From the NCBI GenBank assembly GCA_943788175.1, contig CALSPG010000005.1:256001-320000 (forward strand): a DNA stretch of 64,000 nt, given 5' to 3'. Position numbers and translations under genes: made by a program. Positions 2,052 to 22,826 of this stretch are shown piece by piece. This stretch comes from an uncultured bacterium (GTDB lineage: Bacteria; Fidelibacterota; Marinisomatia; Marinisomatales; UBA1611). The notes beneath the pieces are model-generated. The model was not told the DNA's origin, did not search any database, and worked only from the letters and a program-made list of their open reading frames with translations. How positions within the stretch are numbered: position 1 is the stretch's first letter; every line of letters begins with the position of its first letter.

Positions 2052-2052
2052 T

Positions 2053-2733: not shown

Positions 2734-2736
2734 AAG

Positions 2737-3270
2737 GTGATGAATACCAAAATTAAAATAATCATCAATATCGTGGGCTTTTATATTGGGTGGTGGGGTT
2801 GTATTCTTGGGTCTTCAAACGGGTATCCATACATAGGTCCGCTTTTAATGCTTGTCTTTATAATTATTCATGGAAAATATTTTATTGGTAATGCAAAAGA
2901 ATTACAATTAATAGTCATAATGGGGTTAGTTGGTACTCTCGTTGACAGCTGTCTTTTCTTTTCACAATCTTTTGTATATGCGGGAGCTTATTCAGAAAAT
3001 CTATTTATTGCGCCTTTATGGATTACGGCAATGTGGGCAGGTTTTGCCGCTACGGTTAACCATTCAATGACTTTTTTTAAAGGTAAATGGATCCTTATGA
3101 TTGTCGCTGGTGCAATATTTGGGCCAGCAGCCTACTACACAGGCGAAGGCTTTGGCGCCATAACATTTCAATTGTCTCCTTTGTTATCAACTTTAATTAT
3201 TGGTGCTGTTTGGGCTGTTGCTATGCCATTGGTATTTTTTATAAATGAGAAGCTAGGATTAGGTGGTTAA
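2737..3270 (+). CDS. DUF2878-like membrane protein
   Basis: NIVGFYIGWWGC, PLWITAMW, GAIFGPAAY. Usual neighbour of cfa/DUF1365 clusters. Confidence 0.75.
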   Translation: MMNTKIKIIINIVGFYIGWWGCILGSSNGYPYIGPLLMLVFIIIHGKYFIGNAKELQLIVIMGLVGTLVDSCLFFSQSFVYAGAYSENLFIAPLWITAMWAGFAATVNHSMTFFKGKWILMIVAGAIFGPAAYYTGEGFGAITFQLSPLLSTLIIGAVWAVAMPLVFFINEKLGLGG

Positions 3271-3820
3271 TATTTTGAAAAAGTACACACTCACACTGGT
3301 TCTTTCTCTTTTAATTTATTCTAATTGTGAGGGTTTTATGAGCGATAATAAGAAATTTGGAGAATTAGAGACAGTTGACTATGTTGACTTAAAAAGATTT
3401 ATGGGAGATTGGTATGTAATTGCAAATATACCTACCTTCATTGAAAAAGGAGCTGTAAATGCTATTGAGTCGTACAGGCTTGACTCTAAAGGTAGGGTTC
3501 AAACTACTTTTACTTTCAGAAAAGACTCTCTAACTGGTCCTCAAAAAAAGTATAATCCAACAGGCTTCATTTACAATAAAGAAACAAACTCTGAATGGAG
3601 AATGCAGTTCCTATGGCCATTTAAATCACCTTTTTTGATTATTGACCTCGATGAAAAATACAATTACACTGTTATAGGTGTACCGAATAGAAAGTATGTT
3701 TGGATAATGGCGAGAAACCATGTTCTAGATGATAAGGTTTATAATGAAATAATTTCTAAACTTGAAAAAGTTGGTTATGACATCACCCAAATTCAAAAAA
3801 TTGAGCAGAATTGGGACTAG
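3263..3820 (+). CDS. blc: Bacterial lipocalin (Blc-like)
   Basis: VDLKRFMGDWYVIA lipocalin motif, QFLWPFK, YVWIMAR. Confidence 0.9.
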   Translation: MVNILKKYTLTLVLSLLIYSNCEGFMSDNKKFGELETVDYVDLKRFMGDWYVIANIPTFIEKGAVNAIESYRLDSKGRVQTTFTFRKDSLTGPQKKYNPTGFIYNKETNSEWRMQFLWPFKSPFLIIDLDEKYNYTVIGVPNRKYVWIMARNHVLDDKVYNEIISKLEKVGYDITQIQKIEQNWD

Positions 3821-3851
3821 TCTTTTCTATGCCTAAAGTTTAGTCCATTTA

Positions 3852-5099
3852 ATGAAATTAGCAATAATAGGTTCTGGTATCTCTGGATTGACAGCTGGCC
3901 ATTTGTTAAATAGAAAACATGACATATCTATTTTTGAAGCAAATGATTACATCGGTGGACACACACATACGCATAATTTAAAGGTTAGAAATAAAGACTA
4001 TTTAATTGACACTGGGTTTATCGTATATAATGAAAGAACATATCCTAGTTTTATAAATTTATTAGACAAATTGGGTGTCGAACGACAGCTTTCTACGATG
4101 GGCTTTAGCGTGAAGTCTACTAGCGAAGATTATGAATATTCAGGTGAGTCAATAAATAGCCTGTTTGCGAAAAGATCAAATATTTTTCGTTTAAGCTTTT
4201 TAAAGATGCTCTATGAAATGTATAAATTTGGTAAGGAAGCAGATTCAAGTGGTTTAGGCTTAAATGCTTCGACCACTCTAGGTGAATATTTAAAAGAAAA
4301 AAAGTATTCAAAAGAGTTTATTCATTATTTTATTACGCCAATGGGTGCGGCAATCTGGTCAACACCAGCAAACAAAGTACTAGACATGCCTGCATATTTT
4401 TTCATTAAATTTTTTTACAACCATGGCATGCTCGAAATATCTAATCGGCCTAATTGGTGGGTTATAAAAAATGGCTCTTCTCAGTACATAAGTAAAATCA
4501 TTAAAGGCTTTGAAGAAAAAATTTATTTATCATCACCAATCAAAAAGGTTGTAAGAACAGGTGATGGCATTGAATTATTTTTAGTTAAAAATGATAAAAA
4601 ATTAAACTTTGACGCTGTTATTTTTGCTACGCATAGTGACCAAGCTCTTAGTCTATTAGAGTCTCCATCTGATTTAGAAGAGGAAATACTTAAATCATTT
4701 CCTTATCAAAAAAATGAAGTTCTTTTGCATACAGATGCTACGGTTTTACCTAAGAGAAAATTAGCTTGGGCCAGTTGGAACTATCAGCTTGATGCTGATC
4801 CAAGTGCACCAGTAATTTTAACGTATAATATGAATATTCTACAATCAATTCAAAGTGATCAAACTTTTTGCGTGACTCTAAATGACCATGATTCAGTCGA
4901 TCAAAGTAAAGTAATCAAGAAGTTAAGCTATGATCACCCCTTGTTTACGGTGGACGCTGTAGCAGCGCAAAAAAGGAAACATGAAATTAGCGGTATAAAT
5001 AATACTTACTATTGCGGGGCATATTGGAGAAATGGTTTTCATGAAGACGGCGTAGTTAGTGCGTTGGATGTTTGTGAACAGTTCGGGGAAATATTGTGA
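3852..5099 (+). CDS. FAD-dependent oxidoreductase, UfaD-like fatty acyl desaturase
   Basis: GSGISGL Rossmann fold, DTGFIVYNERTYP, AWASWNY, CGAYWRNGFHEDG. Coupled to DUF1365 and cfa genes. Confidence 0.85.
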   Translation: MKLAIIGSGISGLTAGHLLNRKHDISIFEANDYIGGHTHTHNLKVRNKDYLIDTGFIVYNERTYPSFINLLDKLGVERQLSTMGFSVKSTSEDYEYSGESINSLFAKRSNIFRLSFLKMLYEMYKFGKEADSSGLGLNASTTLGEYLKEKKYSKEFIHYFITPMGAAIWSTPANKVLDMPAYFFIKFFYNHGMLEISNRPNWWVIKNGSSQYISKIIKGFEEKIYLSSPIKKVVRTGDGIELFLVKNDKKLNFDAVIFATHSDQALSLLESPSDLEEEILKSFPYQKNEVLLHTDATVLPKRKLAWASWNYQLDADPSAPVILTYNMNILQSIQSDQTFCVTLNDHDSVDQSKVIKKLSYDHPLFTVDAVAAQKRKHEISGINNTYYCGAYWRNGFHEDGVVSALDVCEQFGEIL

Positions 5100-5860
5100 A
5101 TTTATCAACCGAACATTTTCTATATACGGGTATTGTTAAGCATCGTAGATATACCCCATTCAATAGAGAGTTTTCTTATCCTATTTTTATGCTTTATCTT
5201 GATATAAATGATTTAAATAATGTAATGGAAAAATCAATTTTGTGGAATGTTAATAAAGCAGCAATGGTTTCATTTAATAGGAATGATTATCATAATGCAA
5301 AGACAAAATCTCTTGACCAGGCTGTCCGAGATACAGTTCAAAAAAAAGTTGGAGACAGACCTACCGGTAAAATCAGAATGCTGGCCCACCTCCGATATTT
5401 TGGTTATTGTTTTAATCCTGTAACTTTTTATTATTGTTTCAATCTCGAAGATAATAAGGTTGATTTTATTTTAGCGGAGGTTACAAATACACCGTGGGGA
5501 GAGAGGCACTCATACGTCTTAAGTGCTTCAAAAGATTCAAAGGAAAAAATCAAATCAACAATGAAGAAAGAACTTCATGTATCGCCTTTTTGGGACATGG
5601 ACCATCTGTATGACTGGAGTTTTAGCAGTCCGACAGAAAAGCTAGGTGTTTATATGAAAAATTTTAAAGAAGGGGAAAAAGTTTTTGATGCTACGCTTAA
5701 TTTGAAGAGACTTATTTTAAGTAAGAAGAGTTTATTGGTTACGATTTTTAAATTTCCATTTATGACGATAAAAGTCGTCTTTTGGATACATCTTCAAGCT
5801 TTTTTTTTATGGCTTCGTGGCGCAACTTTCTTTATCCATCCAAGCAAAACTAACAACTAA
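5096..5860 (+). CDS. DUF1365 protein (UfaO-like)
   Basis: HRRYTP, RYFGYCFNPVTFYYC, EVTNTPWGERHSY, KELHVSPF. Confidence 0.9.
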   Translation: MNLSTEHFLYTGIVKHRRYTPFNREFSYPIFMLYLDINDLNNVMEKSILWNVNKAAMVSFNRNDYHNAKTKSLDQAVRDTVQKKVGDRPTGKIRMLAHLRYFGYCFNPVTFYYCFNLEDNKVDFILAEVTNTPWGERHSYVLSASKDSKEKIKSTMKKELHVSPFWDMDHLYDWSFSSPTEKLGVYMKNFKEGEKVFDATLNLKRLILSKKSLLVTIFKFPFMTIKVVFWIHLQAFFLWLRGATFFIHPSKTNN

Positions 5861-5878
5861 TTTATAGAGAGATTTTAA

Positions 5879-7150
5879 ATGGCGAAAAAATTTTCAATTG
5901 AACAAGCTGCGTCTAGTACAACAATAAAAAGTAAGCCGAGTATTTTGGCGAAAATTTTTAAAAATTTAATATTATCACAATTTAGAAAAATTAATCATGG
6001 ATGTATTATTTTAAACGAAGGTAATAAAAAGATTATATTTGGTGACCAAGGGTCATCTTTAAAAGCAGAGGTAAATATTTATTCAGATGAATTTTACATT
6101 TTGGCTGGTAGCGGCGGGGACCTTGGAATTGCAGAGGCTTATGCTGCGGGTTACTGGGACGCAGATGATATGGTAAAACTAATTCAAATTGTAATTAAAA
6201 ATCAGGAAGTACAAAAAAGCTTAGAAGGGGGCCTAGCAAAATTAATTAGTCCAATTAATAGGTATATCCATAGGTCTCGTAGAAATACAGTTTCAGGTAG
6301 TAAAGAAAATATTGTAGCGCATTATGATTTAAGCAATGAGTTTTTTCAGACATGGTTAGATAAAAGCATGACTTACTCATGTGCTATTTTTGAACCAGAA
6401 GATTTATCCTTATTTGATGCTTCAAAAGAAAAGTTAGATCGTATTTGCCGCAAATTAGATATCCAAGCTGAAGATCATGTTGTTGAAATAGGAACCGGTT
6501 GGGGTAGCTTTGCTGTACATGCTGCGAAACAATATGGTTGTCGAGTAACAACAACTACGATTTCCAACGAGCAGCACGCTTATGTTTCTAATTTAATTGA
6601 AAAGGAAGGTCTGAGAGATAAAATAACATTGCTAAAAAATGATTACAGAGAGATTAAAGGACAATATGATAAACTTGTTTCTATTGAAATGATTGAGGCA
6701 GTTGGTTATAATTTTATACAGCAATTTTTTCAAACATGTTCAGATTTGCTTAAGCCCAATGGCTTGATGGCAATACAAGGGATTACTTATCACGAGCAGG
6801 GATTTGATAATCATCTTAATTCTGTTGATTTTATCAAAAAATATATTTTCCCGGGTTCAAATCTTATTTCAGTTAATCATGTTCTATCAGTTATTAAAGA
6901 TTTTACTGATCTTTCTTTAGTTCATTTAGAGGATATAACAAAATATTATGCTGAGACTTTAAAATTATGGAGGGAAAAATATAAAAAGGAGATGAGCAAA
7001 ATAAAAAAAATGGGATATAGTGATGAGTTTTTGAGAATGTGGGATTACTATTTTATTTATTGTGAGGCTGGGTTTAGGGAAAGATTTATTGGTGATGTTC
7101 AGCTTGTTATGGCGAAACCAAAAAACAAAAATATTCAAATAAACTATTAA
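5879..7150 (+). CDS. cfa: Cyclopropane-fatty-acyl-phospholipid synthase family methyltransferase (UfaM/Cfa-like)
   Basis: NIVAHYDLSNEFF, MTYSCA, EIGTGWG, SIEMIEAVG, FIKKYIFPG, YCEAGF. Confidence 0.9.
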   Translation: MAKKFSIEQAASSTTIKSKPSILAKIFKNLILSQFRKINHGCIILNEGNKKIIFGDQGSSLKAEVNIYSDEFYILAGSGGDLGIAEAYAAGYWDADDMVKLIQIVIKNQEVQKSLEGGLAKLISPINRYIHRSRRNTVSGSKENIVAHYDLSNEFFQTWLDKSMTYSCAIFEPEDLSLFDASKEKLDRICRKLDIQAEDHVVEIGTGWGSFAVHAAKQYGCRVTTTTISNEQHAYVSNLIEKEGLRDKITLLKNDYREIKGQYDKLVSIEMIEAVGYNFIQQFFQTCSDLLKPNGLMAIQGITYHEQGFDNHLNSVDFIKKYIFPGSNLISVNHVLSVIKDFTDLSLVHLEDITKYYAETLKLWREKYKKEMSKIKKMGYSDEFLRMWDYYFIYCEAGFRERFIGDVQLVMAKPKNKNIQINY

Positions 7151-7157
7151 AAAAACT

Positions 7158-8198
7158 ATGATAAAAAATTTAATTGATTTAGCAGAGAAAGGCATTTTAC
7201 CGGACTTTTTAATTCGTAGCGGAATTAGAAGAATGCAAAAAGAAAGAATTTTATGGTCGAAGTCTAAGACTGTTTCGGAGGTTGAAAAGCATCATCAGAA
7301 TTGGGTTGATGAGATGAAAAAAAGCTCAATTGCTTATGTTCCTGAGAAAGCAAATTCGCAGCATTATGAAGTGCCTCCAGCTTTTTTTGAAAATGCTCTT
7401 GGGGTCCACCTTAAGTACAGTTCTGGTTATTGGCCAGAGGGTATTAGTACGCTTGATGATTCTGAGTTGGCGATGTTAGAGTTAAGCGCTGAACGTGCAG
7501 AAATTTCAAATGGGGATCAAATTCTTGAATTGGGTTGTGGTTGGGGTTCTTTGACTATGTATATGGCAAAAAAATATCCTGACAGCTCAATTACGGCTGT
7601 TAGCAATTCTAGAGATCAAAGAAAATTCATAGAGGCGAAGTGTAAAAAGAGATCTATAAATAATGTAAAAGTAATTACAAAAGACATGAATGACTTCACA
7701 ATTGAAGAAAAATTTGATAAAATTGTTTCAATTGAAATGTTTGAGCACATGAGAAATTATGAGCAATTATTAGATAAGGTTGCTAGCTGGTTAAAACCAG
7801 GTGGAAAATTATTCATTCATATTTTTACACATAAAACATTAGTATATCCTTTCACTGAAGATGGTGAGGGTGATTGGATGGGGAGGAATTTTTTCAGCGG
7901 CGGCATTATGCCATCGCATCAGCTTCTATTATATTTTCAAAATAAATTGAATATTGAAGAGAGCTGGCGTTTTAATGGCTCACATTATGAGCAGACATCA
8001 CTTGCCTGGCTTAAAAAAATGGATAGTAATAAAAAAGAAATTATGAGCATTTTTGAAAATACTTATGGAGCAGGAGATGCTAAAATATGGTTTCAAAGAT
8101 GGAGAATTTTCTTTATGGCTTGCGAAGTCTTATTTGGTTATGATGGTGGCAAAGAATGGGGAGTTTCACATTACAGGTTTGTAAAATCTGGCAAATAG
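7158..8198 (+). CDS. Second CMAS-family SAM-dependent methyltransferase (coclaurine NMT-like clade)
   Basis: ANSQHYEVP, LKYSSGYW, LELGCGWGS, SIEMFEHMRN, RWRIFFMAC. Confidence 0.85.
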   Translation: MIKNLIDLAEKGILPDFLIRSGIRRMQKERILWSKSKTVSEVEKHHQNWVDEMKKSSIAYVPEKANSQHYEVPPAFFENALGVHLKYSSGYWPEGISTLDDSELAMLELSAERAEISNGDQILELGCGWGSLTMYMAKKYPDSSITAVSNSRDQRKFIEAKCKKRSINNVKVITKDMNDFTIEEKFDKIVSIEMFEHMRNYEQLLDKVASWLKPGGKLFIHIFTHKTLVYPFTEDGEGDWMGRNFFSGGIMPSHQLLLYFQNKLNIEESWRFNGSHYEQTSLAWLKKMDSNKKEIMSIFENTYGAGDAKIWFQRWRIFFMACEVLFGYDGGKEWGVSHYRFVKSGK

Positions 8199-8216
8199 CT
8201 TGTATAATTAAATATG
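8179..8216 (+). promoter_or_regulatory. sigma70-like promoter, leaderless architecture, for the desaturase
   Basis: TTGTAA(8179-84)-18 nt-TATAAT(8203-08)-5 nt-ATG(8214). No SD. Confidence 0.55.
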
Positions 8217-8942
8217 ACGATTATAATATTATTTATTTTACATTGGTATTCTTCGCTGTTTTTTCAAACAGTGTTCTTGCACCGTTATGCTTCCCATCAA
8301 ATGTTTACTATGTCAAAAACATGGGAGCGAATATTTTTTTTCTGTACGTTTTTAACGCAAGGTTCCTCTTTTCTTAATCCTAGAGCTTATGCAATACTCC
8401 ATAGGCTTCACCATAAATATAGTGACACAAAAAATGATCCGCATTCCCCTATATTTTCAAAAAATATTATAAAACTAAATCTTAATACCATAAAGCACTA
8501 TGAGTCCGTAAGACTCAATAAAAAAGACTATTCAAAATATGACACTGATGTTCCGAGGTGGCCATCTTTAGAAAAGATATCTGACCACTGGATAACAAGA
8601 TTATCTTTTGTAGTTTTTTACAGTCTAATCTATTTAAAGTTTACCACTGCAAATTGGCAGTATGCTCTGCTACCTATTCATTTTATCATGGGGCCTCTTC
8701 ATGGTTCTATAGTCAATTGGTGTGGGCACCGATACGGGTATACAAATGATAAAAAAACAAAAGACAATTCAAAAAATACACTACCTGTCGATTTTTTAAT
8801 GATGGGTGAACTTTTTCAAAATAATCACCACAGTAATCCATCTAAAATGAAATTTTCGCGACGATGGTTTGAGTTAGATCCCGGATACATTGCTGCGAAG
8901 ATACTTTCAAAAATAAATATACTCAGAATAAAAAACGCTTAA
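8214..8942 (+). CDS. Delta-9-type membrane fatty acid desaturase
   Basis: His boxes HRYASH, HRLHH, QNNHH. DPHSP, NWCGH. Confidence 0.9.
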   Translation: MTIIILFILHWYSSLFFQTVFLHRYASHQMFTMSKTWERIFFFCTFLTQGSSFLNPRAYAILHRLHHKYSDTKNDPHSPIFSKNIIKLNLNTIKHYESVRLNKKDYSKYDTDVPRWPSLEKISDHWITRLSFVVFYSLIYLKFTTANWQYALLPIHFIMGPLHGSIVNWCGHRYGYTNDKKTKDNSKNTLPVDFLMMGELFQNNHHSNPSKMKFSRRWFELDPGYIAAKILSKINILRIKNA

Positions 8943-8995
8943 AACGCTCAAAAGTACTTGACATTTACCATTTAGGCTAAATAATATATGCCATG
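8931..8995 (+). promoter_or_regulatory. Direct-repeat operator plus sigma70 promoter (site 1)
   Basis: AAAACGCTT AAAACGCTC (8932-8949), 8 nt, TTGACA(8958-63)-18 nt-TAATAT(8982-87)-5 nt-ATG(8993). Confidence 0.75.
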
Positions 8996-9247
8996 GCAAA
9001 TAACGTTCAAAGTATTGAAAACAACATAACGGTTAAAAAGTATGGTAGTCATGTTAAGATTAGCATGGGAGCTACATATTGTATCATTTCTTGTTCAATT
9101 CATAAGATATCTGAATTCGTCAAAGTTGTAGATAACATGTTCTTAGACGGATGGGATGCTACTTCTGGAATTACATCAGAAGACGGTATGGTGTTTCAAT
9201 CGATGACAAAAATGTCAATAAATAATAACCAATCAAACAGTAATTAA
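8993..9247 (+). CDS. Small hypothetical protein, C-terminal half DUF1737-like
   Basis: FVKVVDNMFLDGWDATSGITSEDGMVFQSMTK resembles the DUF1737 pattern. First gene after the promoter. Confidence 0.55.
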   Translation: MANNVQSIENNITVKKYGSHVKISMGATYCIISCSIHKISEFVKVVDNMFLDGWDATSGITSEDGMVFQSMTKMSINNNQSNSN

Positions 9248-9258
9248 GGAGTTTTGTT

Positions 9259-9501
9259 ATGACAATATTACAAGCTGTCGCTGCTGGGTTAGAAAACACA
9301 GAAAAGCGCAAAGAGCCAAAGAAAAAAGCAGATAGGTATTTTCTAGACGGAAAAGTTGCCGACAGAGAGTTAAAAGCTTGCAACCTATGTAAAATCGTAT
9401 GGCAAAAGCACGTTTTCAATGGTAAAACAACAATCAAGTATTATGATGAAGTTCCAAGATATGGAAAATCTCAGCAAATATGCCCAAGTTGTAGTCAATA
9501 A
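9259..9501 (+). CDS. Small putative zinc-ribbon protein
   Basis: SD TAAGGAG. CNLC...CPSC cysteine pairs. Confidence 0.65.
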   Translation: MTILQAVAAGLENTEKRKEPKKKADRYFLDGKVADRELKACNLCKIVWQKHVFNGKTTIKYYDEVPRYGKSQQICPSCSQ

Positions 9502-10213
9502 TTGAATATTTTAATAGTAAATGGATCTGGGGCCATTGGGTCCTCCATTATCAAGGGCTTGAATGATAAGTCTGTAAACCTAATCATCACTTCAAGCACA
9601 GGCGAAGATGTGCATGGCAACAAGACAATGCATTGGAAATATTCAGGTAGTGATTCTGTTGAATCGCTCTTCGAATCCATCAAAAACGAGCATAGTCAAC
9701 TTGATTCAGTTGTAAATTGTCTAGGATCAATTTTCTCTAAAGCCAGCTCACTTAACGAGTGTACAAGATTTTGATGAAGTTTTGGATATTAATTTAAAGT
9801 CTTCCTTTCTTATACTGAAAAACTCAGTACCAATGATGAGGAAAAATGGTGGAAATCTTCTTTTTTTCTCATCAGCAGCATCAAGCATAGGAATGGCTAA
9901 TCATGAAGCCATCTCTGCAGCCAAAGGAGGTATAGAGGCTATGGTAAGGTCCGCGGCTGCAACATATGCTAAGAATAATATTAAAGTAAATGCTATTGCT
10001 CCGGGTCTAGTTGATTCTAATTTATCAAAAAATATAGTTTCTAATGAAGCGGCATTAAATGTGTCAAAGAGAATGCACAGTGTTGGGAGAATTGGGACGC
10101 CTGATGATATTTCCAAATTTGCTATTCCATTAATTGTCGATAATAGTAGTTGGGTAACTGGTTCAATCATTAATATTGATGGAGGACTTTCAACTACTAA
10201 AATAGCGAGTTAA
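9502..10213 (+). CDS. SDR family oxidoreductase, split by a +1 frameshift near 9736
   Basis: GSGAIG Rossmann motif. Removing one base gives GSIFLKPAHLTSVQDFDEVLDINLKS, continuing to SAAKGG and VNAIAPG. Confidence 0.85.
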
Positions 10214-10216
10214 TAA

Positions 10217-10513
10217 ATGGATAGTATAGATCATATTGCAGTACAGACAGATTCAATAATTGATTCTGTAAAATGGTATAAAGAGATGTTTTCATGTGAA
10301 GTTGAATATGAAGATGATTCTTGGGCATTATTAAAATTTGAAAACACAAAGCTGGCCCTAGTCATTCCGAACCAGCACCCACCACACATTGCTGTTAAAA
10401 GGGATAACTTAGAGAGCTTTGGCTCTCCAGTCAAACATAGAGATGGTTCAGAATCAGTGTACGTAAAATCCCCAGACAACAATACATTCGAGTTGATTAG
10501 ATATCCTAAATAA
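10217..10513 (+). CDS. VOC/glyoxalase family protein
   Basis: IDHIAV...WY, HIAV, SVYVKSPDNNTFELI. Confidence 0.85.
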   Translation: MDSIDHIAVQTDSIIDSVKWYKEMFSCEVEYEDDSWALLKFENTKLALVIPNQHPPHIAVKRDNLESFGSPVKHRDGSESVYVKSPDNNTFELIRYPK

Positions 10514-11053
10514 ATGAAGCGTTACACAGTAATATTCCTAATTTTTATTGCAAACTTAATTTTTGCAGGAAGTCAAAACATGACGGAAAACATTTATAAC
10601 ATTAAAATAAAAAATGTTTATGGAGAAGAAACATCATTAAAAGTTTATCAGGGAAAGAAAATTCTAATTGTTAACGTTGCTTCAAACTGCGGATATACTA
10701 GTCAATATAAAGGCCTTCAACAGTTACAAGATCAGTACGGAGATAAGCTACAAGTCATTGCTTTCCCTTGTAATGATTTCGGTTCTCAAGAACCTGGAAC
10801 AGACAAACAAATTGCTCAGTTTTGCGAATCTAATTACAATGTAAAATTTCCAGTAATGAGCAAAATAAACATTAAAAGCAAGCCTATCCATCCAATTTAT
10901 GAATGGTTGTCAACCAGTGAGCTAAATGGGTGGAATGATTCAAAACCTAGGTGGAACTTTTACAAATACCTAATTGATGAAAATGGAAATTTAATCAAAT
11001 CCTTTGGAAGCAATACTAGTCCTTTAAGTTCTGAAATTATTCAAAGTTTATAG
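10514..11053 (+). CDS. gpx: Glutathione peroxidase (Cys type), with signal peptide
   Basis: NVASNCGYTSQY, FPCNDFGSQEPG, WNFYKYLID. Confidence 0.95.
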   Translation: MKRYTVIFLIFIANLIFAGSQNMTENIYNIKIKNVYGEETSLKVYQGKKILIVNVASNCGYTSQYKGLQQLQDQYGDKLQVIAFPCNDFGSQEPGTDKQIAQFCESNYNVKFPVMSKINIKSKPIHPIYEWLSTSELNGWNDSKPRWNFYKYLIDENGNLIKSFGSNTSPLSSEIIQSL

Positions 11054-11079
11054 TAATTAATACTTAAAGGTATTGAATT

Positions 11080-12564
11080 TTGGATGCTACAATTATTTTT
11101 CCTCATCAGTTATTTTCGAGCTCAAGTGCATTAAAAAGAAGTCGTAAGACTTTTATTATCAGAGACCCTTTATTTTTTAATGATAAAAAATATCCAGTTC
11201 GGTTTCATAAAAATAAAATTCTTCTTCATATTCTTTCCACAGATTACTATAGAAGTGAGTTGGTTGAAAGGGGATATGATGTCCAATTAGTTACTGAAAA
11301 AGAATTAATTGGAGAGAACTATTTTGATTCATTTTTTAAAAAAAACAATATCAATGAAGTTCATTATTGTGACCCAGTTGATTACACAATTACTAAAAGA
11401 CTAGACCACTCGATTAATAGTCTATCCATTAAATCATATAAATATGATACACCAGGTTTTATGCTAGAAGAATCAGACGTCTTTGATCATTTTACCAATA
11501 AGAAGTCACATTTTATGGCTGCCTTTTATAAGAAACAGCGTAAAAGATATAACATTCTAATGAATGATGATGGAACTCCTGTTGGCGGAAAGTGGAGTTT
11601 TGATCATGAGAACAGGAAGCGTTTTCCAAAAACAATGGAATCGCCAAAAATTTCTCAGATTATGTATCAAAATGATAAGTTTGTGCAGGCTGAAGACTCG
11701 GTCAGTGCATTTTATAATGACAATCTTGGTAATATGGATAATTTTAACTATCCTGTTACAAGAAGTCAGGCATTGAATTCTTTTCATTCATTCCTGGAAG
11801 AACGTTTAATTAACTTTGGCGCTTATGAAGATGCTATTGTCAAAGATGAATCGACCCTATTTCATAGTATCATTACTCCTTATTTAAATATCGGATTGAT
11901 AACTCCAAATGAGATTATACAACAAGTTTTAGATTTTTCATCCAATAATTCTATTCCACTGAATTCTCTGGAAGGTTTCATTAGGCAAATAATTGGTTGG
12001 AGAGAATTTATGCGAGGTATATATGTCGCTGATGGTGTCAAGCAGCGGAATTCAAATTTTTGGAATTACAATAGAGCAATGCCAAAGTCATTTTATGATG
12101 GAACAACAGGCATAGAGCCCTTAGATGACACTATCAAGAAATGTTTAAACAGTGGTTATGCTCATCATATTGAGCGGTTAATGATTTTAGGGAATATGAT
12201 GTTATTAATAGGTATTAAGCCAAATGCTGTGTACAAATGGTTTATGGAAATGTTTGTTGATTCTTATGATTGGGTTATGGTCCCCAATGTATATGGGATG
12301 AGTCAATTTGCTGATGGTGGTTTATTAGCCACAAAACCATATATAAGTGGAAGTAATTACATTTTAAAAATGAGTGATTATAAAAAAGGCGACTGGTGTC
12401 CCATTTGGGATTCTCTTTATTGGGGATTTGTTGATCGTAATAGAGAATTTTTTAGAAAAAACCCTCGCATGAGTATGATGGTTTCAATGTTTGATAAAAA
12501 AGATGATGCCTCAAAAAAGAGGCTATTCGAAACATCTCAAAATTTTATTGAAAGTTTATTTTAA
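11080..12564 (+). CDS. Bacterial (6-4) photolyase / BCP family, PhrB-like without FeS cluster
   Basis: IFPHQLF, GGKWSFDHENR, EGFIRQIIGWREF, GYAHHIERLM, KPYISGSNYILKMS. Confidence 0.9.
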   Translation: MDATIIFPHQLFSSSSALKRSRKTFIIRDPLFFNDKKYPVRFHKNKILLHILSTDYYRSELVERGYDVQLVTEKELIGENYFDSFFKKNNINEVHYCDPVDYTITKRLDHSINSLSIKSYKYDTPGFMLEESDVFDHFTNKKSHFMAAFYKKQRKRYNILMNDDGTPVGGKWSFDHENRKRFPKTMESPKISQIMYQNDKFVQAEDSVSAFYNDNLGNMDNFNYPVTRSQALNSFHSFLEERLINFGAYEDAIVKDESTLFHSIITPYLNIGLITPNEIIQQVLDFSSNNSIPLNSLEGFIRQIIGWREFMRGIYVADGVKQRNSNFWNYNRAMPKSFYDGTTGIEPLDDTIKKCLNSGYAHHIERLMILGNMMLLIGIKPNAVYKWFMEMFVDSYDWVMVPNVYGMSQFADGGLLATKPYISGSNYILKMSDYKKGDWCPIWDSLYWGFVDRNREFFRKNPRMSMMVSMFDKKDDASKKRLFETSQNFIESLF

Positions 12565-12686: not shown

Positions 12687-13178
12687 TCACTTATACTTTC
12701 TATATCTGGAAATCACATCAATTATAATTGTATCATAATCTTTAATTTTAAGATGCAACTTATCATTGACAACTTTCGCTGAACCACTTAGAAGTTTGTC
12801 CTTGTAAGTCCAATTTTGATCTCTGTCGACGGCCCAGTTGAAAGTGTTGATTTTGCTATCAGACCAATCTTGTTCACCGGTCCATTCAATGTTACCTAGT
12901 AATTGAGTGAACGTAGGCCTTGTTAAATCTTTCGCGTTCGAATAATTTTTTTCAAAATCAGTTTTGGCATATGGGTGCTTCTCAATCAATACAGTACCGC
13001 TAGTAGATTTTATAAATAATCTCATATAATCTGTCCAATCTTGGAACCAGATTTCTGCAGGTCCTATATTAGAAGAGTCTGAATCCCAAACATAATGAGG
13101 TATGTTTTTATAGTCACTTTTATCTTCTGCATTTAAAAGTGTTGCTAGGTAGATGAATGTAATTATTATTTTTATCAT
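12687..13178 (-). CDS. Hypothetical secreted protein
   Basis: 163-aa ORF with signal peptide (LNA|ED). Own promoter TTGAAT-18-TAATTT-5-ATG. Confidence 0.7.
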   Translation of the reverse strand: MIKIIITFIYLATLLNAEDKSDYKNIPHYVWDSDSSNIGPAEIWFQDWTDYMRLFIKSTSGTVLIEKHPYAKTDFEKNYSNAKDLTRPTFTQLLGNIEWTGEQDWSDSKINTFNWAVDRDQNWTYKDKLLSGSAKVVNDKLHLKIKDYDTIIIDVISRYRKYK

Positions 13179-13213
13179 GTAATAAATTAACTCACTGTTT
13201 GATAAGTATTCAA
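13176..13213 (-). promoter_or_regulatory. Divergent leaderless sigma70-like promoter
   Basis: Minus strand: TTGAAT(13213-13208)-18 nt-TAATTT(13189-13184)-5 nt-ATG(13178). Confidence 0.55.
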
Positions 13214-13227
13214 ATGTTTTATATCAA

Positions 13228-13292
13228 AAAAAGTTCAAAACGCTCAAAAAAACCTTTACCTTTTGTCCATTTTTTTATTACTATCTGAAATG
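13228..13292 (+). promoter_or_regulatory. Direct-repeat operator plus promoter of the regulator gene (site 2)
   Basis: AAAAAGTTC AAAACGCTC (13228-13245), 9 nt, TTTACC(13255-60)-18 nt-TACTAT(13279-84)-5 nt-ATG(13290). Confidence 0.65.
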
Positions 13293-14172
13293 AAATATTT
13301 AAATTCTAAGGAAGTATCAGACATAATAGGTAGTAAACATCTCTACTTTAAAGAGGTGGACTGACAATGGCACTATTGGTTGCCATAAAACTGCAGGAGG
13401 TCACAGAAAATTCACTATGCAAAATGTTAGAGAATACTACAGCTCTAACAAAAAAGCTTCTAAAAGTGAAAATGTTGTATTAGAAAACTTCGAGCATAAA
13501 AAGATTTTTGAATTAATTAAAAAAGGTAATTTATCTGAACTGAGCTACAAGCTTGCAGATGCAAGTATAGAATCTGATGAAGCGACTGTTAAAACCATTA
13601 TTTCTGGTTCCTACATGAATAATATTGATGTAGAAACTTTATTTGATCAAGTTGTTGATCCTGGTAGTATGATTGTAGAAAAAGCACTACATGAAGGTTA
13701 CTTATCTCACACTGAAGCTTTTATTAGTAGAAAAATTATTACACGGGCTACAGAATCTCTAAATGATCACAAGCCAAATGGTTCACTTAATGGTAAGTAT
13801 GCTCTATGTGTTAATTTTGAAGATAATCTACCTGATTTAGGAGTGGTCATGTCAGAAGTCATTTTGAGGCATAAGGGTTATAATGTTTTTAATACAGGTT
13901 CGCATGCTGAGCTTGGAGACCTTGAAAAAGTGATTAAAAATAAAAAGATAGATCTTGTTGTTTTTTATCTCTGCAATATGCAATGCTGTATGTCAATTGT
14001 TGGGGACAACATTAATAAGACTGCAAAACAAGTGACTTCTATTTTTGAAATATCCGAAAAAATGAAAGTTGATGTAATATTTGGTGGGTTAGGCATAGAG
14101 CTTTTGCCAAATATTTCTAATACAATATCTAAAACATTTATTACGTTCAAAGAGCTAAACAAACTAGTTTAG
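13290..14172 (+). CDS. MerR/BldC-like HTH plus cobalamin-binding-fold (CarH/CarA/LitR-like) transcriptional regulator; +1 frameshift at about 13332
   Basis: Reconstructed N-terminus MKYLNSKEVSDIIGVNISTLKRWTDNGTIGCHKTAGGHRKF joins ORF 13417..14172, which has a helical cap and a B12-binding-like Rossmann domain (LGVVMSEVILRHKGYNVFNTG). Confidence 0.8.
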
Positions 14173-14191
14173 TTTACTTCCTCAATTAATT

Positions 14192-15544
14192 ATGGGTGAA
14201 AATATGGGAAGAATGCGTCAAATTAGAACTGGGCCATTTAATGGCAAGTGCGTTCTCTACTGGATGGTAAGAGACAAAAGAGTTTGTGATAATTGGGCTC
14301 TATTAGAAGCTCAAAAAAAAGCAATTGAGAATAAAGTTCCCTTAATAGTAGTTTTTAATTATCACAATTCATATCAAGATGCGAATGTAAGGCAATATAG
14401 TTTTTCATTTTATGGGCTTCAAGAAGTGGATAAAGATTTGAAAAAACTCAATATCCAATTCTTTTTATTAAGTGGGCCAGCCAATGAGACTATTTCTAAG
14501 TTTATTGAGGATTACAAAGTAGGTTTTTTAATTACAGATTTTAGCCCGCTTAAAGTTTATACAAAAAGATTAAGAACTGTAGTTAAGAATACCACTATTC
14601 CCATTACCCAGGTTGATACCCATAATATAATTCCAGTTTGGAATGCATCTCCAAAAAAAGAATATGCAGCTTATACAATAAGGCCCAAAATAAAAAAATT
14701 ACTGCCGATATATTTAACAGATATCCCTCAATTAAAGAGACATCCTGTACAAAGTGATTTTTCAAGCGTTGAAATAAATTGGAAACAAGTTGTAGAGTCA
14801 ATGAACATAGATAGAAGCGTGAAGTCTGTAGACTGGATAAATCCGGGTGAAAAAAATGCAAGAAACCTTCTAGGAAAATTGAAAACACAATTAATTGATT
14901 ATAATGAAAAAAGGAATAATCCAAATCTGCACAAATTGTCAAATATGAGTCCGTATTTTCATTTTGGTCAAATTTCGCCTCAGCGTGTAGCTTTTGAAAT
15001 AAAAAATTCAAACCTCTCTGATGTCGATAAAGAAGCTTTTTTGGAGGAGATGATTGTTAGAAGAGAATTAGCGGACAACTTTTGTTTTTATGAAGAAAAT
15101 TATGACTTTTTTGAGGGCTTTCATGCTTGGTCACAAAAGACATTAAATGAACATAGAAATGATGAAAGAGAATATGTTTATTCCCCGCAAGAGTTTGAGG
15201 CATCAACAACGCATGATGAATTATGGAATGCAGCACAAGATGAAATGAAGACTAGGGGTAAAATGCATGGTTTTATGCGGATGTATTGGGCAAAAAAAAT
15301 TCTGGAGTGGAGCCCGAGTCCTGAGTTAGCGCAGCAAACGGCAATAGATCTAAACGATAAATACCAACTTGATGGAAGAGACCCTAATGGTTACACCGGC
15401 ATAGCATGGAGCATTGGAGGCATTCATGATAGAGCCTGGTTTGAAAGACCTGTCTTTGGAAAAGTTCGATACATGAATTATAATGGATGCAAAAGAAAGT
15501 TCAATGTGGATCAATACATAGAAAGCAATAAAATAATTAGTTGA
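14192..15544 (+). CDS. phr: Class II CPD DNA photolyase
   Basis: VLYWMVRDKRVCDNWAL, LSNMSPYFHFGQIS, GKMHGFMRMYWAKKILEW, DGRDPNGY. Confidence 0.95.
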   Translation: MGENMGRMRQIRTGPFNGKCVLYWMVRDKRVCDNWALLEAQKKAIENKVPLIVVFNYHNSYQDANVRQYSFSFYGLQEVDKDLKKLNIQFFLLSGPANETISKFIEDYKVGFLITDFSPLKVYTKRLRTVVKNTTIPITQVDTHNIIPVWNASPKKEYAAYTIRPKIKKLLPIYLTDIPQLKRHPVQSDFSSVEINWKQVVESMNIDRSVKSVDWINPGEKNARNLLGKLKTQLIDYNEKRNNPNLHKLSNMSPYFHFGQISPQRVAFEIKNSNLSDVDKEAFLEEMIVRRELADNFCFYEENYDFFEGFHAWSQKTLNEHRNDEREYVYSPQEFEASTTHDELWNAAQDEMKTRGKMHGFMRMYWAKKILEWSPSPELAQQTAIDLNDKYQLDGRDPNGYTGIAWSIGGIHDRAWFERPVFGKVRYMNYNGCKRKFNVDQYIESNKIIS

Positions 15545-15579
15545 ATGTGCAACGATTTCATATTTAACTTTATGATGTG
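15541..15579 (+). promoter_or_regulatory. Putative marR promoter with an inverted repeat in the spacer
   Basis: TTGAAT(15541-46)-18 nt-TAACTT(15565-70). AATGTGCAA-CGA-TTTCATATT (15544-64) is a 7/9 inverted repeat. Confidence 0.4.
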
Positions 15580-16038
15580 TCTAATAATCAAAAATTGAAA
15601 AGTGATATCGATATAGGCATGTTGATGTCTCAAGTTGATAGGCTTTGCACTAAGCACTTTAGTCAAAACGCTCAAAATGCTGGTATAAATATCTCCCAAG
15701 ACCAATGGCTGGTTCTAGGTCCAGTTTGGAAGGTTGAGGGGATAGCACAGAAAGACATTGCTGAATATTGTGGTAAGGACAAAACAAGTGTAACAAAGAT
15801 AATTGACACGCTTGAGAAAAAAAATTTAATGGTGCGAGTTCCTGATCAGTTAGATCAAAGGATTAAGAGGGTATTCCTCAGTAACAAGGGCAAAGAGCTA
15901 ATGGAAAGTACAATGCCCATAATGGAACAGACTCGAAATGAAGTGCGTGAAGGTATTCCTGATGAAGAAATTGATTTATTTAAAACTGTATTAATTAAAA
16001 TATATAAAAACTTAACAGCGAATAAAAACTCCAACTAG
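15577..16038 (+). CDS. MarR family transcriptional regulator
   Basis: QWLVL, QKDIAE, DKTSVTKIIDTLEKK, DQRIKRVFLSNKG. Confidence 0.92.
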   Translation: MSNNQKLKSDIDIGMLMSQVDRLCTKHFSQNAQNAGINISQDQWLVLGPVWKVEGIAQKDIAEYCGKDKTSVTKIIDTLEKKNLMVRVPDQLDQRIKRVFLSNKGKELMESTMPIMEQTRNEVREGIPDEEIDLFKTVLIKIYKNLTANKNSN

Positions 16039-21600: not shown

Positions 21601-21808
21601 ACTTACTTCGGTTACCACGTTTGTGGGTTTATTCCCGCTATTAATCGAAAAGAGCGTGCAAGCACAGTTTCTAGTTCCAATGGCGGTTTCACTAGCTTTT
21701 GGTGTATTATTTGCAACTTTTATTACACTAATCTTGGTGCCAACTAGTTATTTAATTATTGAGGATATGAAAGATTTTTCCGCAAAACTATTTAATAAAA
21801 ACGCTTAA
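18644..21808 (+). CDS. RND efflux permease (AcrB family)
   Basis: 1054 aa. GIVVDDAVVVGENI, RFRPILLTS. Confidence 0.95.
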   Translation: MKNIIRWFILNTVAANLLMIFIIIAGLFTLSRLRMEVFPDITIPIINVSVLYPGASPEDIEESICVKVEEQVQGINGLKRITSSSNESYGSINIEVENGYDIDEVKDEVKSLVDAITSFPDDAEKPTVKSFDGQPEVITIAVHGNVDEVSLLNIAEKVRDEVSDLPSITQTRLGKKPKEISIEISENTLQKYGLSFDYVASKIRSSSMDVPGGAIETYDGEILIRSKGQAYSGDEFGAIPVLSLSDGSTVLLRDIANIVDGFQDVEYDIKFNSEPALLIRVYRTGEQNALDIADEVHKYIIKKNPTMPPGISLTTMKDESVILRGRIELLTENAYLGLVLVLIVLALFLKPKLAAWVSLGIPISFMGGFWLLPLFDVSINMISLFTFILVLGIVVDDAVVVGENIHIFRKRGLNAVDAALEGAYQVAKPVIFAVLTTMVTFSPMILVEGAMGKIWRIIPVVTIVVLIFSLIESLTILPAHLAHMKDDDEEEQNRFLSWWSKVQLVIHNGLQSFIKNQYNPLLRLALKNRGNTIAISISILIFTIGFVASGFIKFNFFPPLEADIVIAGVEYPEGTPVQITKVGLEQVEKSAYRLKDSLEVLYPDKEIFINMVSTAGDQPIKTQSARGPGNLDANFFGSHLAECVIELAPGEERPVSTIEISKIWRELTGPIAGVKQVTFDSDLFSSGAPIEIQLSSISRGDLKEVTSILKDKLQTYAGVFDIKDSFSAGKDEIKLSLRPEAQNYGITMASLARQVRQAFYGEEVQRVQRGRDEIKVFLRYPKEERASLNNLEQMNVRVGNDIEVPLGQVASSELSSGYSTITRTDRKRSISVTADVDLSEANANEILAKFEKEHILPILESYPNVIYSFEGEQREQRDTLGSLFKNFALALFIVYVLLAIPFKSYSQPLIIMSAIPFGFTGAVIGHVIMGMNLAVLSIIGIVALSGVVVNDSLVMVDFINRYRQEDGKSCLEAALAAGPRRFRPILLTSVTTFVGLFPLLIEKSVQAQFLVPMAVSLAFGVLFATFITLILVPTSYLIIEDMKDFSAKLFNKNA

Positions 21809-21853
21809 AACGCTCATTATTGATTGACAAGGTCAGCTGGTTTCAATTAAATT
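21797..21853 (+). promoter_or_regulatory. Direct-repeat operator plus sigma70 promoter (site 3)
   Basis: AAAACGCTT AAAACGCTC (21798-21815), 8 nt, TTGACA(21824-29)-18 nt-TAAATT(21848-53). The 20-mer is identical to 8931-8950. Confidence 0.75.
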
Positions 21854-21896: not shown

Positions 21897-22826
21897 ATGA
21901 AAGTTGCAGTTTTTGGTGGCACTGGGTTCGTAGGTTCATACTTAATAGAGCATCTTCTTGAACAGGGTCATCATCCAAGGCTTCTAGTTCGTAAGGGCTC
22001 AGATAGTAAAGTGATTTCTTCTCAGAATTGTGAGATTATCAACGGTGACATCAATGATAAAAATTCAATTAAAGAAACTATTTCCGGTGTAGAAGCAGTT
22101 ATTTATACGATTGGAATTATTAGAGAGTTCAAATCAAAGGGCGTGACTTTTGAAAATGCCCACTTTGATGGAGCTGTTAAATGTATTGACGCTGCAGAAG
22201 AGGCAGGTGTAAATAAGTTCATTCTCATGAGCGCAAATGGTGTTTGCCCTGATGGGACGGGTTATCAAAAAACAAAATGGATGTCTGAACAATATCTTAA
22301 GAATACGAAATTGAATTGGACAATTTTTAGACCCTCCACAATTTTTGGAGATCCAAGAGGTAGCGGCCGTCCTGAATTTTGTTCGCAACTGAAAAAAGAT
22401 ATGATTGGTTTGCCATTTCCTGCTCCCCTTTTTCATGAGGGTCTTAATCCTTTTGATGCGGGAAATTTTTCTATGTCCCCGATTCATATTAAAGATGTCG
22501 CTAAAAGTTTTATCAGCTCGTTAAACAATAAAAAGCTAGAAAAAAAAACAATAGAGCTCGGGGGACAGGCTTTTACTTGGAAACAAATTATTAAAAATAT
22601 AGGCATAGCTTCTGGTAAAAATAAATTTATGGTTCCTGCGCCAGTATTTGCTGTCAAATTAGTTGCTAATATTTTAGATAGATTTAGTTGGTTTCCAGTT
22701 ACGGCTGACCAGTTAACCATGCTGGTTGAGGGCAATACTTGTGATTCTTCAAAGTTTTTTACTGAAAATGAATTAATACCAATTCCTTTTAATGAAGAAA
22801 ATCTTTCCTATCTAGGTAAAGATTAA
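21897..22826 (+). CDS. NAD(P)-dependent epimerase/dehydratase (NDUFA9-like atypical SDR)
   Basis: GGTGFVG, YQKTK, FRPSTIFG, PIHIKDVA. Confidence 0.88.
   Translation: MKVAVFGGTGFVGSYLIEHLLEQGHHPRLLVRKGSDSKVISSQNCEIINGDINDKNSIKETISGVEAVIYTIGIIREFKSKGVTFENAHFDGAVKCIDAAEEAGVNKFILMSANGVCPDGTGYQKTKWMSEQYLKNTKLNWTIFRPSTIFGDPRGSGRPEFCSQLKKDMIGLPFPAPLFHEGLNPFDAGNFSMSPIHIKDVAKSFISSLNNKKLEKKTIELGGQAFTWKQIIKNIGIASGKNKFMVPAPVFAVKLVANILDRFSWFPVTADQLTMLVEGNTCDSSKFFTENELIPIPFNEENLSYLGKD

Follow-up and report, generated by a model that had tools for sequence, protein, structure and literature searches.

A putative B12-free CarH-type regulator with a clade-specific cysteine triad beside photolyase genes in an uncultured Marinimicrobia/SAR406 bacterium

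B12-based light sensing has its model in the CarH-type proteins, which also serve as optogenetic parts; how their B12-less relatives sense is so far understood only in part. Here we describe such a relative from Marinimicrobia/SAR406, which are among the ocean's most abundant heterotrophic lineages and form a major surface-to-mesopelagic group with, to our knowledge, no cultured marine representatives. The regulator gene lies at positions 13290 to 14172 of a 64,000-nt stretch of DNA, called the window below, from an uncultured bacterium (Fidelibacterota, Marinisomatales, UBA1611; assembly GCA_943788175.1, contig CALSPG010000005.1, positions 256,001 to 320,000). From sequence comparison, the 293-amino-acid (aa) product is the putative master regulator of a SAR406 photodamage regulon and is intact in nature. 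Very likely it no longer works through photolysis of adenosylcobalamin (AdoCbl) and is descended from B12-type regulators that used the same operator.

CarH (class I LitR) of Thermus thermophilus (5C8D/E/F) has the same sensor fold, a helix bundle followed by a Rossmann domain. It represses photoprotection genes, has a classical MerR-type helix-turn-helix (HTH) and needs AdoCbl to oligomerise; the oligomer binds tandem direct repeats, three of 11 bp, while the repeats described here are of 9 bp. The closest solved relative is CtMerR from Chloracidobacterium thermophilum (8JBS/8JBT), which shares the three-part architecture and the BldC-like type of HTH, at an identity of only about 15%. Statements credited to papers here and below follow excerpts of those papers. 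CtMerR assembles into a head-to-tail dimer and a tetramer, where one chain's GxxxP loop meets its partner's helix bundle (PMC11796333). The signature of the light-responsive cobalamin domain is GxxW, EH, GxxH and GxxxP, with the Trp capping the adenosyl group; the lower ligand in CtMerR is His204, and the adenosyl group has Trp156 and Pro228 of the neighbouring chain packed against it (PMC11796333). CtMerR binds AdoCbl through His204 and has all four elements, whereas the protein described here has L119, A129-F130, P167 and E193 at these places and an inserted cysteine triad.

B12-independent relatives of CarH/LitR are already known, namely LitR classes II-V (PMC9758184, whose summary of the class definitions is followed here) and the SCHIC domain of AppA (PMC3760249). 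Class II LitR (PmlR2/PplR1) is a B12-independent repressor of the CarH family whose light-induced regulon, with a photolyase, a furan-fatty-acid synthase and a CryB-like gene, overlaps in content with the island described here (PMC9758184). Its MerR-type HTH acts on TGTACA-N12-TGTACA, unlike the 9-bp direct repeat of the window, and its C-terminal domain has low similarity (19.3%) to Thermus LitR's B12-binding domain (PMC9758184). Its signal comes from a light-oxygen-voltage (LOV) partner, and in the excerpts of PMC9758184, by whose description alone it is compared here, no cysteine triad is described. The AppA SCHIC domain of Rhodobacter sphaeroides (4HEH) has a B12-like fold without cobalamin use, a redox input via cysteines and a CryB-type protein that binds to it (PMC3760249, PMC3401432). 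It differs in being part of an anti-repressor with BLUF and no DNA-binding domain, in binding heme via His, and in that its Cys-rich stretch is a separate C-terminal tail (PMC3760249). Like the regulator of the window, BldC of Streptomyces (6AMA/6AMK) has operators of head-to-tail 9-bp direct repeats in variable number, one bound by each protomer, and the HTH sequences are similar; BldC, however, is a stand-alone protein of 68 residues without a sensor, oligomerises via its winged HTH (wHTH) alone and has a different repeat, AATTxxxxC (PMC5859096). In a literature search, no publication was found on a Marinimicrobia/SAR406 light regulator (judged by title) and none on a Cys-bearing B12-independent CarH (judged by title or abstract).

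The four signature elements were located by alignment to CtMerR and 66 canonical relatives, and none of them (0/4) is intact in the regulator. They and the segments that hold the replacements are as follows.

GxxW: E116-K-A-L119; lost; the column is Trp in 62/66 canonical relatives and Leu in 7/7 members of the clade.
EH: A129-F130; lost.
GxxH: D164-N-L-P167; lost; Pro167 aligns to the CtMerR His ('...egdlHeia').
GxxxP, loop after beta-2: G189-S-H-A-E193; Gly retained, Pro lost; alignment A1 has E, K, Q or D at position 193.
13687..13722, plus strand: former W-x9-EH helix, L119...H126-T-E128-A129-F130; residues 125-128, 130-131 and 134 in the predicted dimer interface.
13807..13809, plus strand: C159 in beta-1, invariant and ancestral; Cys in 49/66 B12-type relatives.
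13819..13842, plus strand: EDNLPDLG loop, formerly GxxH/DxHxxG, with Pro167 for the cobalt-ligating His; residues 166-168 in the predicted interface.
13966..13992, plus strand: cysteine triad Y212-L-C214-N-M-Q-C218-C219-M at the end of beta-3; low-confidence loop in the models.

A preliminary description of this DNA, made from its letters alone, had read His-to-Pro in EDNLPDLG, and the alignment places that Pro against the CtMerR His. It had also reported the loss of W-x9-EH; the loss stands, while the register was one residue off (W corresponds to L119 and EH to A129-F130). EH is still present in the deep clade member P0131, and the GG motif after beta-4 is retained, with G251 and G252 invariant.

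The triad (codons 13972-13974 for C214 and 13984-13989 for C218/C219) is the only clade-wide new set of ligand-type residues. Both LC[ND]xQCC and E[DE]NLPD[LI]G were found in 120/120 close homologues among the matches listed, at identities of 58-100%, so that unconserved cysteines, which the preliminary description had named as grounds for giving up its reading, are not the case. The two motifs also occur in P0121, P0122 and P0131 (identities to the full-length orthologue P0009 of 53, 40 and 30%). Outside the clade, LC[ND]xQCC was absent from 84/84 aligned full-length representatives. Among the best 150 representatives of 50%-identity clusters, 15 carry the Cys motif (3 full-length, 12 fragments), and P0249 has one unrelated C-x3-CC elsewhere in the protein. 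MAFFT aligned the triad segment as a clade-specific insertion after beta-3, where B12 proteins have SxL; the canonical Ser corresponds to Y212, hence C214 stands at the Leu position. The preliminary description had spoken of a gained CxxxCC cluster, which is right for C214, C218 and C219; a fourth cysteine, C159, is inherited and no gain. C17 in the wing of the HTH is likewise inherited (Cys in 61/66 B12-type relatives).

The gene encodes a BldC/HTH_17 domain up to about 13440, then a linker, a four-helix bundle (about 13468-13770) and a Rossmann domain (about 13780-14169). We ran the profile searches on intact orthologues as well as on the window copy. HTH_17 of Pfam scored 35.3 bits in P0009 and P0122 (cut-off 27) and only 17.2 bits in the frameshifted window copy. 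B12-binding reached 25.9 bits in P0009, below its cut-off of 32.1, and B12-binding_2 was not found in P0009, while the canonical relatives P0129 and P0199 gave 35.8 and 40.2 bits for the latter (cut-off 23). The best NCBIfam family for the HTH is BldC, as the preliminary description had led us to expect, at 34.3 bits in P0009 against a cut-off of 77 (NF033787). This score is too low for membership, and a sensor module of about 230 residues is present; in sequence the regulator resembles BldC in its DNA mode, yet it is no member of the BldC family. NCBIfam CarH scored 25-27 bits against a cut-off of 400. Searched against PDB sequences, the A1 family profile matched CtMerR (8jbs_A, E 6.1e-19) over residues 5-215, the match starting in the HTH, and otherwise only the BldC chains 6amk (6e-4) and 6ama (1e-3). 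A protein atlas queried with the homologue P0119 returned only its own cluster and B12-type HTH_17 clusters.

AlphaFold was run on the truncated window protein (model 1, mean predicted local distance difference test, pLDDT, 76.1) and on P0009 (84% identical; model 2, 29-sequence alignment, mean pLDDT 83.7). In both models a wHTH and a linker are followed by a helical bundle and a five-stranded Rossmann domain, a CarH/CtMerR-type fold. Foldseek matched model 1 to CtMerR 8jbs (E 3.9e-10, template-modelling score, TM, 0.82). The P0009 model matched CtMerR 8jbt/8jbs (VIA) with Z 21.3/21.2 and a root-mean-square deviation (rmsd) of 2.6 A over 220 residues, the photocobilins with Z about 19.8, the AppA SCHIC domain (4heh) with Z 17.0 and rmsd 3.1 A over 203 residues, chains of the TtCarH cobalamin-binding domain with Z about 15.5, MetH with Z 15.1 and AerR with Z 15.0. 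These matches bear out the CarH/CarA-like regulator first proposed. The predicted fold has the four-helix bundle and Rossmann domain of AdoCbl photoreceptors and, like SCHIC, is B12-like without B12 motifs. In both models the triad loop belongs to the few stretches of low confidence (pLDDT below 50 at 217-223 in model 1; 56 for block 231-240, P0009 numbering, in model 2), which would be expected if the loop becomes ordered only with a ligand.

The wider family counts 1984 representatives found at E up to 1e-3. The tree alignment, from which five multi-HTH or two-stretch proteins were left out, holds 87 full-length members, most with B12 motifs. Outside the Cys clade there are 84 members, 66 with His and 18 without; the His-less ones belong to several lineages and have no CC motif. 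The Cys clade is monophyletic (support 0.988) and includes the 270-aa protein P0225 on a long branch. Midpoint rooting makes it sister to all others, and it is therefore outgroup logic and the shared operator, and not nesting in the tree, that support derivation from the B12 type.

A match to P0009 was found in 24/201 sampled genomes of the phylum. Close matches occur only in the window's genome and in one of two congeners (84 and 86% identity), and the other 22 are at 22-31%; the window's genome has the Cys type only. We examined six distant loci of the same phylum, in which GxxW, EH, GxxH and GxxxP are all present in 6/6 regulators. The same operator was found in 3/6 of these B12-type loci and a variant in a fourth. 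In L051 both strands carry it in the space that separates the B12-type regulator from a divergent operon for a lycopene cyclase, a CrtI-like oxidase and a phytoene synthase, which is the classic CarH arrangement. The neighbours in L048 are SRPBCC-like, NmrA-like (55% identical) and amine oxidase (47% identical) genes. Since the B12-type homologues of the phylum share the operator, the DNA-binding domain and the operator appear to be ancestral and the sensor module remodelled.

A locus of the Marinimicrobia type was also seen in a metagenome-assembled genome labelled Flavobacteriaceae (L017, NHFW02000004.1), with a regulator of 55% identity, DPRP and short-chain dehydrogenase/reductase (SDR) neighbours and the operator; mis-binning or gene transfer could account for it. 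B12 economy was considered as the cause of the switch and rejected. CbiC and CobD/CbiB were not found in the window's genome, and CobD/CbiB was above the cut-off in 0/5 genomes with a B12-type homologue too; because it is missing on both sides, auxotrophy does not separate the Cys and B12 types.

The open reading frame (ORF) track of the window has a single entry here, 13417-14172 (251 aa), because an extra 'a' at 13332 separates two frames.

13290..14172, plus strand: regulator gene, encoding 293 aa with HTH, four-helix bundle and Rossmann domain.
13290..13331, plus strand: codons 1-14, start of the HTH, frame 1, MKYLNSKEVSDIIG; the same N-terminus in P0001/P0002 and L003-L006.
13332..13332, plus strand: extra base 'a', frame-breaking, not a homopolymer slip.
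13333..14172, plus strand: remainder of the gene, 279 codons and stop, from Pfam/NCBIfam, models and fold searches.

From the ATG at 13290, frame 1 runs through these 14 codons and meets TGA at 13362. Frame 2 from 13333, VNISTLKRWTDNG... (its start also quoted as VNISTLKRWTDNGTIGCHKTAGGHRKF...), is open up to the stop at 14170-14172. The frames thus confirm a 1-nt insertion at about 13332, by which the preliminary description had explained why the ORF track misses the HTH. We aligned contigs of four public runs (DNA X1, X4 and X5; RNA X15) over 12900-14300. One letter is missing at 13331/13333 in all DNA contig depth of the 3/3 DNA runs: in 2/2 contigs of X1, which together make up all depth, in one 2142-nt contig of X4 that covers the whole stretch with 4 other differences, and in one 1214-nt contig of X5. 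These contigs have at most 4 other differences from the window over an aligned stretch of up to 1401 nt. Contigs of X15 end at 13319 and restart at 13342 and are uninformative on the extra base; RNA-library contigs cover the regulator gene, which is no proof of transcription.

The HTH is in frame in 26/26 related loci that have the 5' end (the 27th, L029, is the 3' part of the regulator only), so the gene is not a pseudogene by a frameshift common to relatives, as the preliminary description had allowed; the HTH is also present in 116 of 120 close homologues among the matches listed. The insertion is uncompensated in comparison with L003 and L004, and it falls in a codon that is GTA, GTT or ATT (Val/Ile) among strains. 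In the X1 graph it lies inside a small assembly bubble with two alternative 112-nt contigs (13251-13363) that differ at 13281, 13287 and 13310. At least two strains co-occur in X1, and the frameshift site is within the strain-variable patch 13251-13363.

It is improbable that the frameshift is real in this strain, leaving a pseudogene or an HTH-less 251-aa product from the ATG at 13417. For it speak the assembly itself, the identical 251-aa product P0003 recorded from 4 contigs, and an SDR gene of the same regulon that is likewise split by an uncompensated 1-nt insertion (about 9737); an allele with a private mutation is conceivable because Logan contigs drop rare variants. The absence of the base from all contig depth in 3/3 DNA runs speaks against it, as does the position of the insertion in a strain-variable codon and an assembly bubble, which is consistent with a chimeric consensus. 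We consider both 1-nt insertions, with high probability, to be consensus errors. Because the base is absent from all DNA contig depth and the frame is kept in 26/26 relatives, the regulator gene of this assembly should be read as intact and its break most likely as an assembly artefact.

Three putative operators of the window are linked to promoters or to the start of the regulator.

13229..13249, plus strand: putative autoregulatory operator, two head-to-tail 9-bp units AAAGTTCAA-AACGCTCAA, core 13233-13246, 44 nt before the ATG.
8931..8985, plus strand: second operator AACGCTTAA-AACGCTCAA, core 8937-8950, 7 nt, then TTGACA-16-AATAAT; promoter match 11/12.
21797..21853, plus strand: third operator, same sequence as the second, core 21803-21816, 7 nt, then TTGACA-18-TAAATT; promoter match 10/12.

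The core of the regulator's own operator is GTTCAAAACGCTCA, and the three cores of the window are identical in sequence. In 25/26 relatives and the window, the core G-Y-T-C-A-W-A-A-C-G-C-T-C-A is found 42-45 nt upstream of the ATG, while the intergenic DNA that flanks it is not conserved. It can be written as AACGCTCAW twice; the full units are WAWCGCTYA, of which two, sometimes three, stand head-to-tail. The 26 loci (261,663 nt) hold 53 operator sites, 51 of them on the gene strand. There were 27/53 sites not scored as own-promoter, one of which (L005) is truly an own-promoter site that was misfiled; 24 of the 27 start with A[AT]C, i.e. have two full WAWCGCTYA units, and 21 have TTGNN 5-9 nt downstream. 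The putative operator is located just upstream of the predicted -35 of the promoters of the regulator itself, of the photolyase and of the defence genes against reactive oxygen species (ROS). In the stretch from the regulator's own operator to its ATG, a sigma-70 scan gave no consensus promoter.

When up to 2 mismatches are allowed, 5 matches occur in the window where 1.1 are expected, and 1/100 shuffles reached 5. A relaxed scan for the repeat gave 8 against 2.7 expected, of which only the three promoter-linked sites are convincing. Genome-wide, with one mismatch, 7 forward and 7 reverse matches compare with 0 and 8 for a reversed control, which is no enrichment; only exact or near-exact sites beside promoters were used. 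The only other exact match in the genome, where by our own estimate about 0.1 is expected by chance, is on the minus strand at G000:C5:463970-463983 (L031), in the 'wrong' orientation. It lies in the gap before a secreted 470-aa protein and 2.2 kb from another photolyase-family gene (G000:C5:466177-466563, L045). A word with two mismatches, AGTCAAAACGCTCA at 15661-15674, lies inside the 5' end of a MarR-type ORF and is probably due to chance. For the regulator and the first operon gene alike, a box resembling a -10 element precedes the start codon by only about 5-10 nt (8985-8995; upstream in L007-L026), and the mRNAs of these two may have very short leaders or none.

This operator type, a direct repeat 7-8 nt upstream of -35 with promoter spacers of 16 and 18 bp, has the head-to-tail 9-bp repeats of BldC operators and lacks the palindrome inside a 19-20-bp -35/-10 spacer of classical MerR sites. 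The match between a 9-bp direct repeat and a BldC-type HTH had been pointed out at the start, and the conservation of the repeat among relatives agrees with it. The exception among the relatives is L027, the clade member that diverges most (47% identical). Its recognition helix is NESTVRRW instead of NISTLKRW, and its 9-bp tandem repeat is a different one, present as two pairs; the 7.3 kb hold four copies of the core of that repeat, each upstream of the L027 regulator. Recognition helix and site therefore appear to covary. Both the Pro and the Cys triad are retained in L027 (NHIV01000076.1, 312-388), where no photolyase is nearby and the neighbours are a 1032-aa protein and membrane proteins.

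The genes placed in the regulon and those next to it are as follows.

14192..15544, plus strand: class II cyclobutane pyrimidine dimer photolyase (TIGR00591, 594 bits), 19 nt downstream of the regulator.
8993-12564: operon behind the second operator, with two small ORFs, the split SDR, glyoxalase-like, glutathione peroxidase and CryB/PhrB-type photolyase-family genes.
11080..12564, plus strand: CryB/PhrB-family flavoprotein (FeS-BCP/CryPro; Pfam DPRP 2e-45), regulon member.
21897-22826: NmrA-like gene behind the third operator.
15577-16038: MarR-type regulator gene, adjoining the regulator/photolyase region.
625-8942: upstream genes for SOUL, pirin, YceI, DUF2878, lipocalin, amine oxidase, DUF1365, two methyltransferases like cyclopropane fatty acid synthase, and a desaturase.
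625-1224: SOUL heme-binding gene.

The class II photolyase is directly downstream of the regulator in 18/26 loci, and in the window it is probably co-transcribed with it. No operator was found in the window ahead of the lipid-gene block 625-8942. The CryB/PhrB-family protein matches PhrB (4dja, 5e-87) and CryB (3zxs, 1.3e-74), and its gene is present in 13/26 related loci. Against PhrB it has a gap at a C-x2-C segment ('...sdyCdtC...'), and it may be an Fe-S-less member of the FeS-BCP/CryPro family. The SDR gene (9502-10213) is split into 9502-9774 and 9782-10213 and is contiguous in the close relative L003 (90% DNA identity); the split again points to indel errors, or else to decay, in the assembly. 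The main regulated operon begins with two small ORFs (8993-9247 and 9259-9501) that have no Pfam family. The second of them, zinc-ribbon-like with C-x2-C...C-x2-C, is present in 18/26 loci, usually as the first gene after the strongest operator, and could be a small regulator or anti-repressor. The MarR-type ORF precedes an OEP-HlyD-AcrB efflux operon, and this operon is kept downstream in L004, L005, L006, L024 and L028. On the minus strand, 12687-13178 encodes a protein of 163 aa that has no Pfam family and, by eye, probably a signal peptide; its gene is divergent from the regulator in the closest relatives (L003-L006) and elsewhere in the island in more distant ones.

When two copies of residues 50-279 were modelled together, the interface score ipSAE was 0.71, 0.70 and 0.70, with 0.00 for the best control; contacts agreed in at least 72% of pairs and the partner pLDDT was at least 81. 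By rough counts, for which our own alignment was used, this mark is reached by 20/30 solved homo-pairs and 1/23 single-chain proteins. In the predicted symmetric interface, the former EH helix (125-134, 138, 141) of one chain faces 158/160, the LPD loop 166-168 and the former GxxxP loop (186-191) with its helix (together 186-204) of the other. Seven clade-specific invariant residues (E128, P148, L158, P167, D168, N187 and S190) fall in it, and the triad is not listed there. If the dimer is real, residues that replaced the B12 contacts would now make the contact once mediated by B12.

The reading we favour, tentatively and with somewhat less than even confidence, is a B12-free repressor with an intrinsic cysteine/metal redox input. 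The regulator is probably a repressor, because the target promoters are near consensus (11/12 and 10/12) and repression has precedent in the family, in which many LitR/CarH members are repressors (PMC9758184). The residues in place of the B12 contacts would glue the dimer directly; a head-to-tail oligomer would sit on the DNA, and further protomers would cover the consensus -35 box. The triad, in the former pocket of the nucleotide tail, would hold a metal or Fe-S centre or form a reversible disulfide; its oxidation by photo-oxidative stress (singlet oxygen, peroxides) would loosen either the oligomer or the binding to DNA and so derepress the regulon. That the input is intrinsic, via C214-x3-C218-C219 and possibly the inherited C159, is a possibility to which we give rather less than an even chance. 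We rank it before a CryB-like partner, a heme or other tetrapyrrole, and no signal, in that order, because the triad is new clade-wide and lies in the former cofactor pocket, and protection against photo-oxidation is what the regulon provides. A more specific form of it is doubtful: the B12 photoreceptor fold converted to a direct sensor of photo-oxidative damage, with the B12 contacts now a permanent interface, the Cys loop reading singlet oxygen or peroxide, and the DNA part unchanged.

Several points weigh against a B12-free repressor with an intrinsic switch. Both conserved operator units lie upstream of -35 and not over it, a position that also fits an activator; as they stop 7-8 nt upstream of -35, a repressor would have to add a third protomer that is weakly specified. 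The new cysteines number only three, and a vicinal Cys-Cys pair is unusual as an Fe-S ligand. The low pLDDT of the triad might equally mean a flexible loop, and the dimer score may reflect likeness or model memory, because the dimers of CarH and CtMerR are solved. The cell handles AdoCbl, with a cobalamin riboswitch, a PduO-type adenosyltransferase and two canonical B12 domains, and supply would therefore allow a corrinoid to be bound non-canonically. Both worked-out B12-less relatives sense through a partner, class II LitR through LOV (PMC9758184) and BluR through BluF (PMC3509220); and a CryB-type gene is in the regulon, CryB being known to bind the B12-like SCHIC domain of AppA (PMC3401432).

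A partner photoreceptor is accordingly the strongest rival, though we hold it unlikely. The regulator would be a light-blind constitutive repressor that is pulled off the DNA when a separate flavoprotein binds its B12-less sensor module in the light, the best candidate being the CryB/PhrB-family product of 11080-12564, and the cysteines would be structural or a secondary redox input. An illuminated short-LOV protein releases class II LitR from DNA (PMC9758184), BluF antagonises the MerR-like repressor BluR directly (PMC3509220), and the binding of CryB to SCHIC is light-dependent (PMC3401432); the likeness of the P0009 model to SCHIC (Z 17.0) and the presence of a CryB/PhrB homologue in the window fit this. 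That homologue is found, however, in just half of the loci (which are short, so that it may be elsewhere), and its best matches are enzymes, (6-4) photolyases. In the 92%-complete genome no BLUF domain and no short LOV protein were found. The two PAS_9 matches are a PAS-UbiA fusion, which was the stronger one and was rejected as a short-LOV partner, and a 609-aa frame; the fusion (G000:C7:179554-182838, L001) has 426 aa, with an N-terminal PAS domain and, by eye, a UbiA/MenA-type prenyltransferase membrane domain. A partner also leaves unexplained why three new cysteines are invariant down to 30% identity.

Quite improbable, in our view, is that the old corrin pocket binds heme, a porphyrin or, non-canonically, a corrinoid, with a Cys thiolate as axial ligand and reports photosensitiser load or oxygen/redox. 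AppA SCHIC, a close structural match, is a B12-like fold that binds heme and is modulated by a nearby Cys-rich region, although its heme ligand is His (PMC3760249). The retained GG motif, the SOUL gene in the same island and the AdoCbl available in the cell agree with such a ligand; all four residues or loops that cradle the corrin and the adenosyl group are changed, however, and in the predicted dimer a partner helix at the C-terminal sheet edge, near 158, 160 and 166-168, leaves little room for a macrocycle. Least probable of all is a constitutive or merely autoregulated factor that receives no signal, with cysteines that are structural (a Zn(Cys)3-4 staple or core) and induction by other factors. 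C159 comes down from B12-type relatives, in which no ligand role is known for it, the triad is outside the predicted interface, and a MarR-type regulator is encoded next door. Yet only light or oxidative stress makes the regulon genes necessary, the ancestors that shared the operator were B12 light sensors, and a surface-loop triad that is invariant across 30-100% identity argues for a function beyond packing.

The clade is a clean natural experiment, in which the DNA-binding domain, the operator and the type of regulon are shared with B12-type homologues and the sensor module alone differs. The system is small, with one 293-aa protein and one 18-bp operator. It would also explain how SAR406 switches on photolyases, glutathione peroxidase and lipid-protection genes. 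If the regulator is a direct damage sensor, the CarH/LitR family would have in it its first sensor that is intrinsic and cofactor-swapped.

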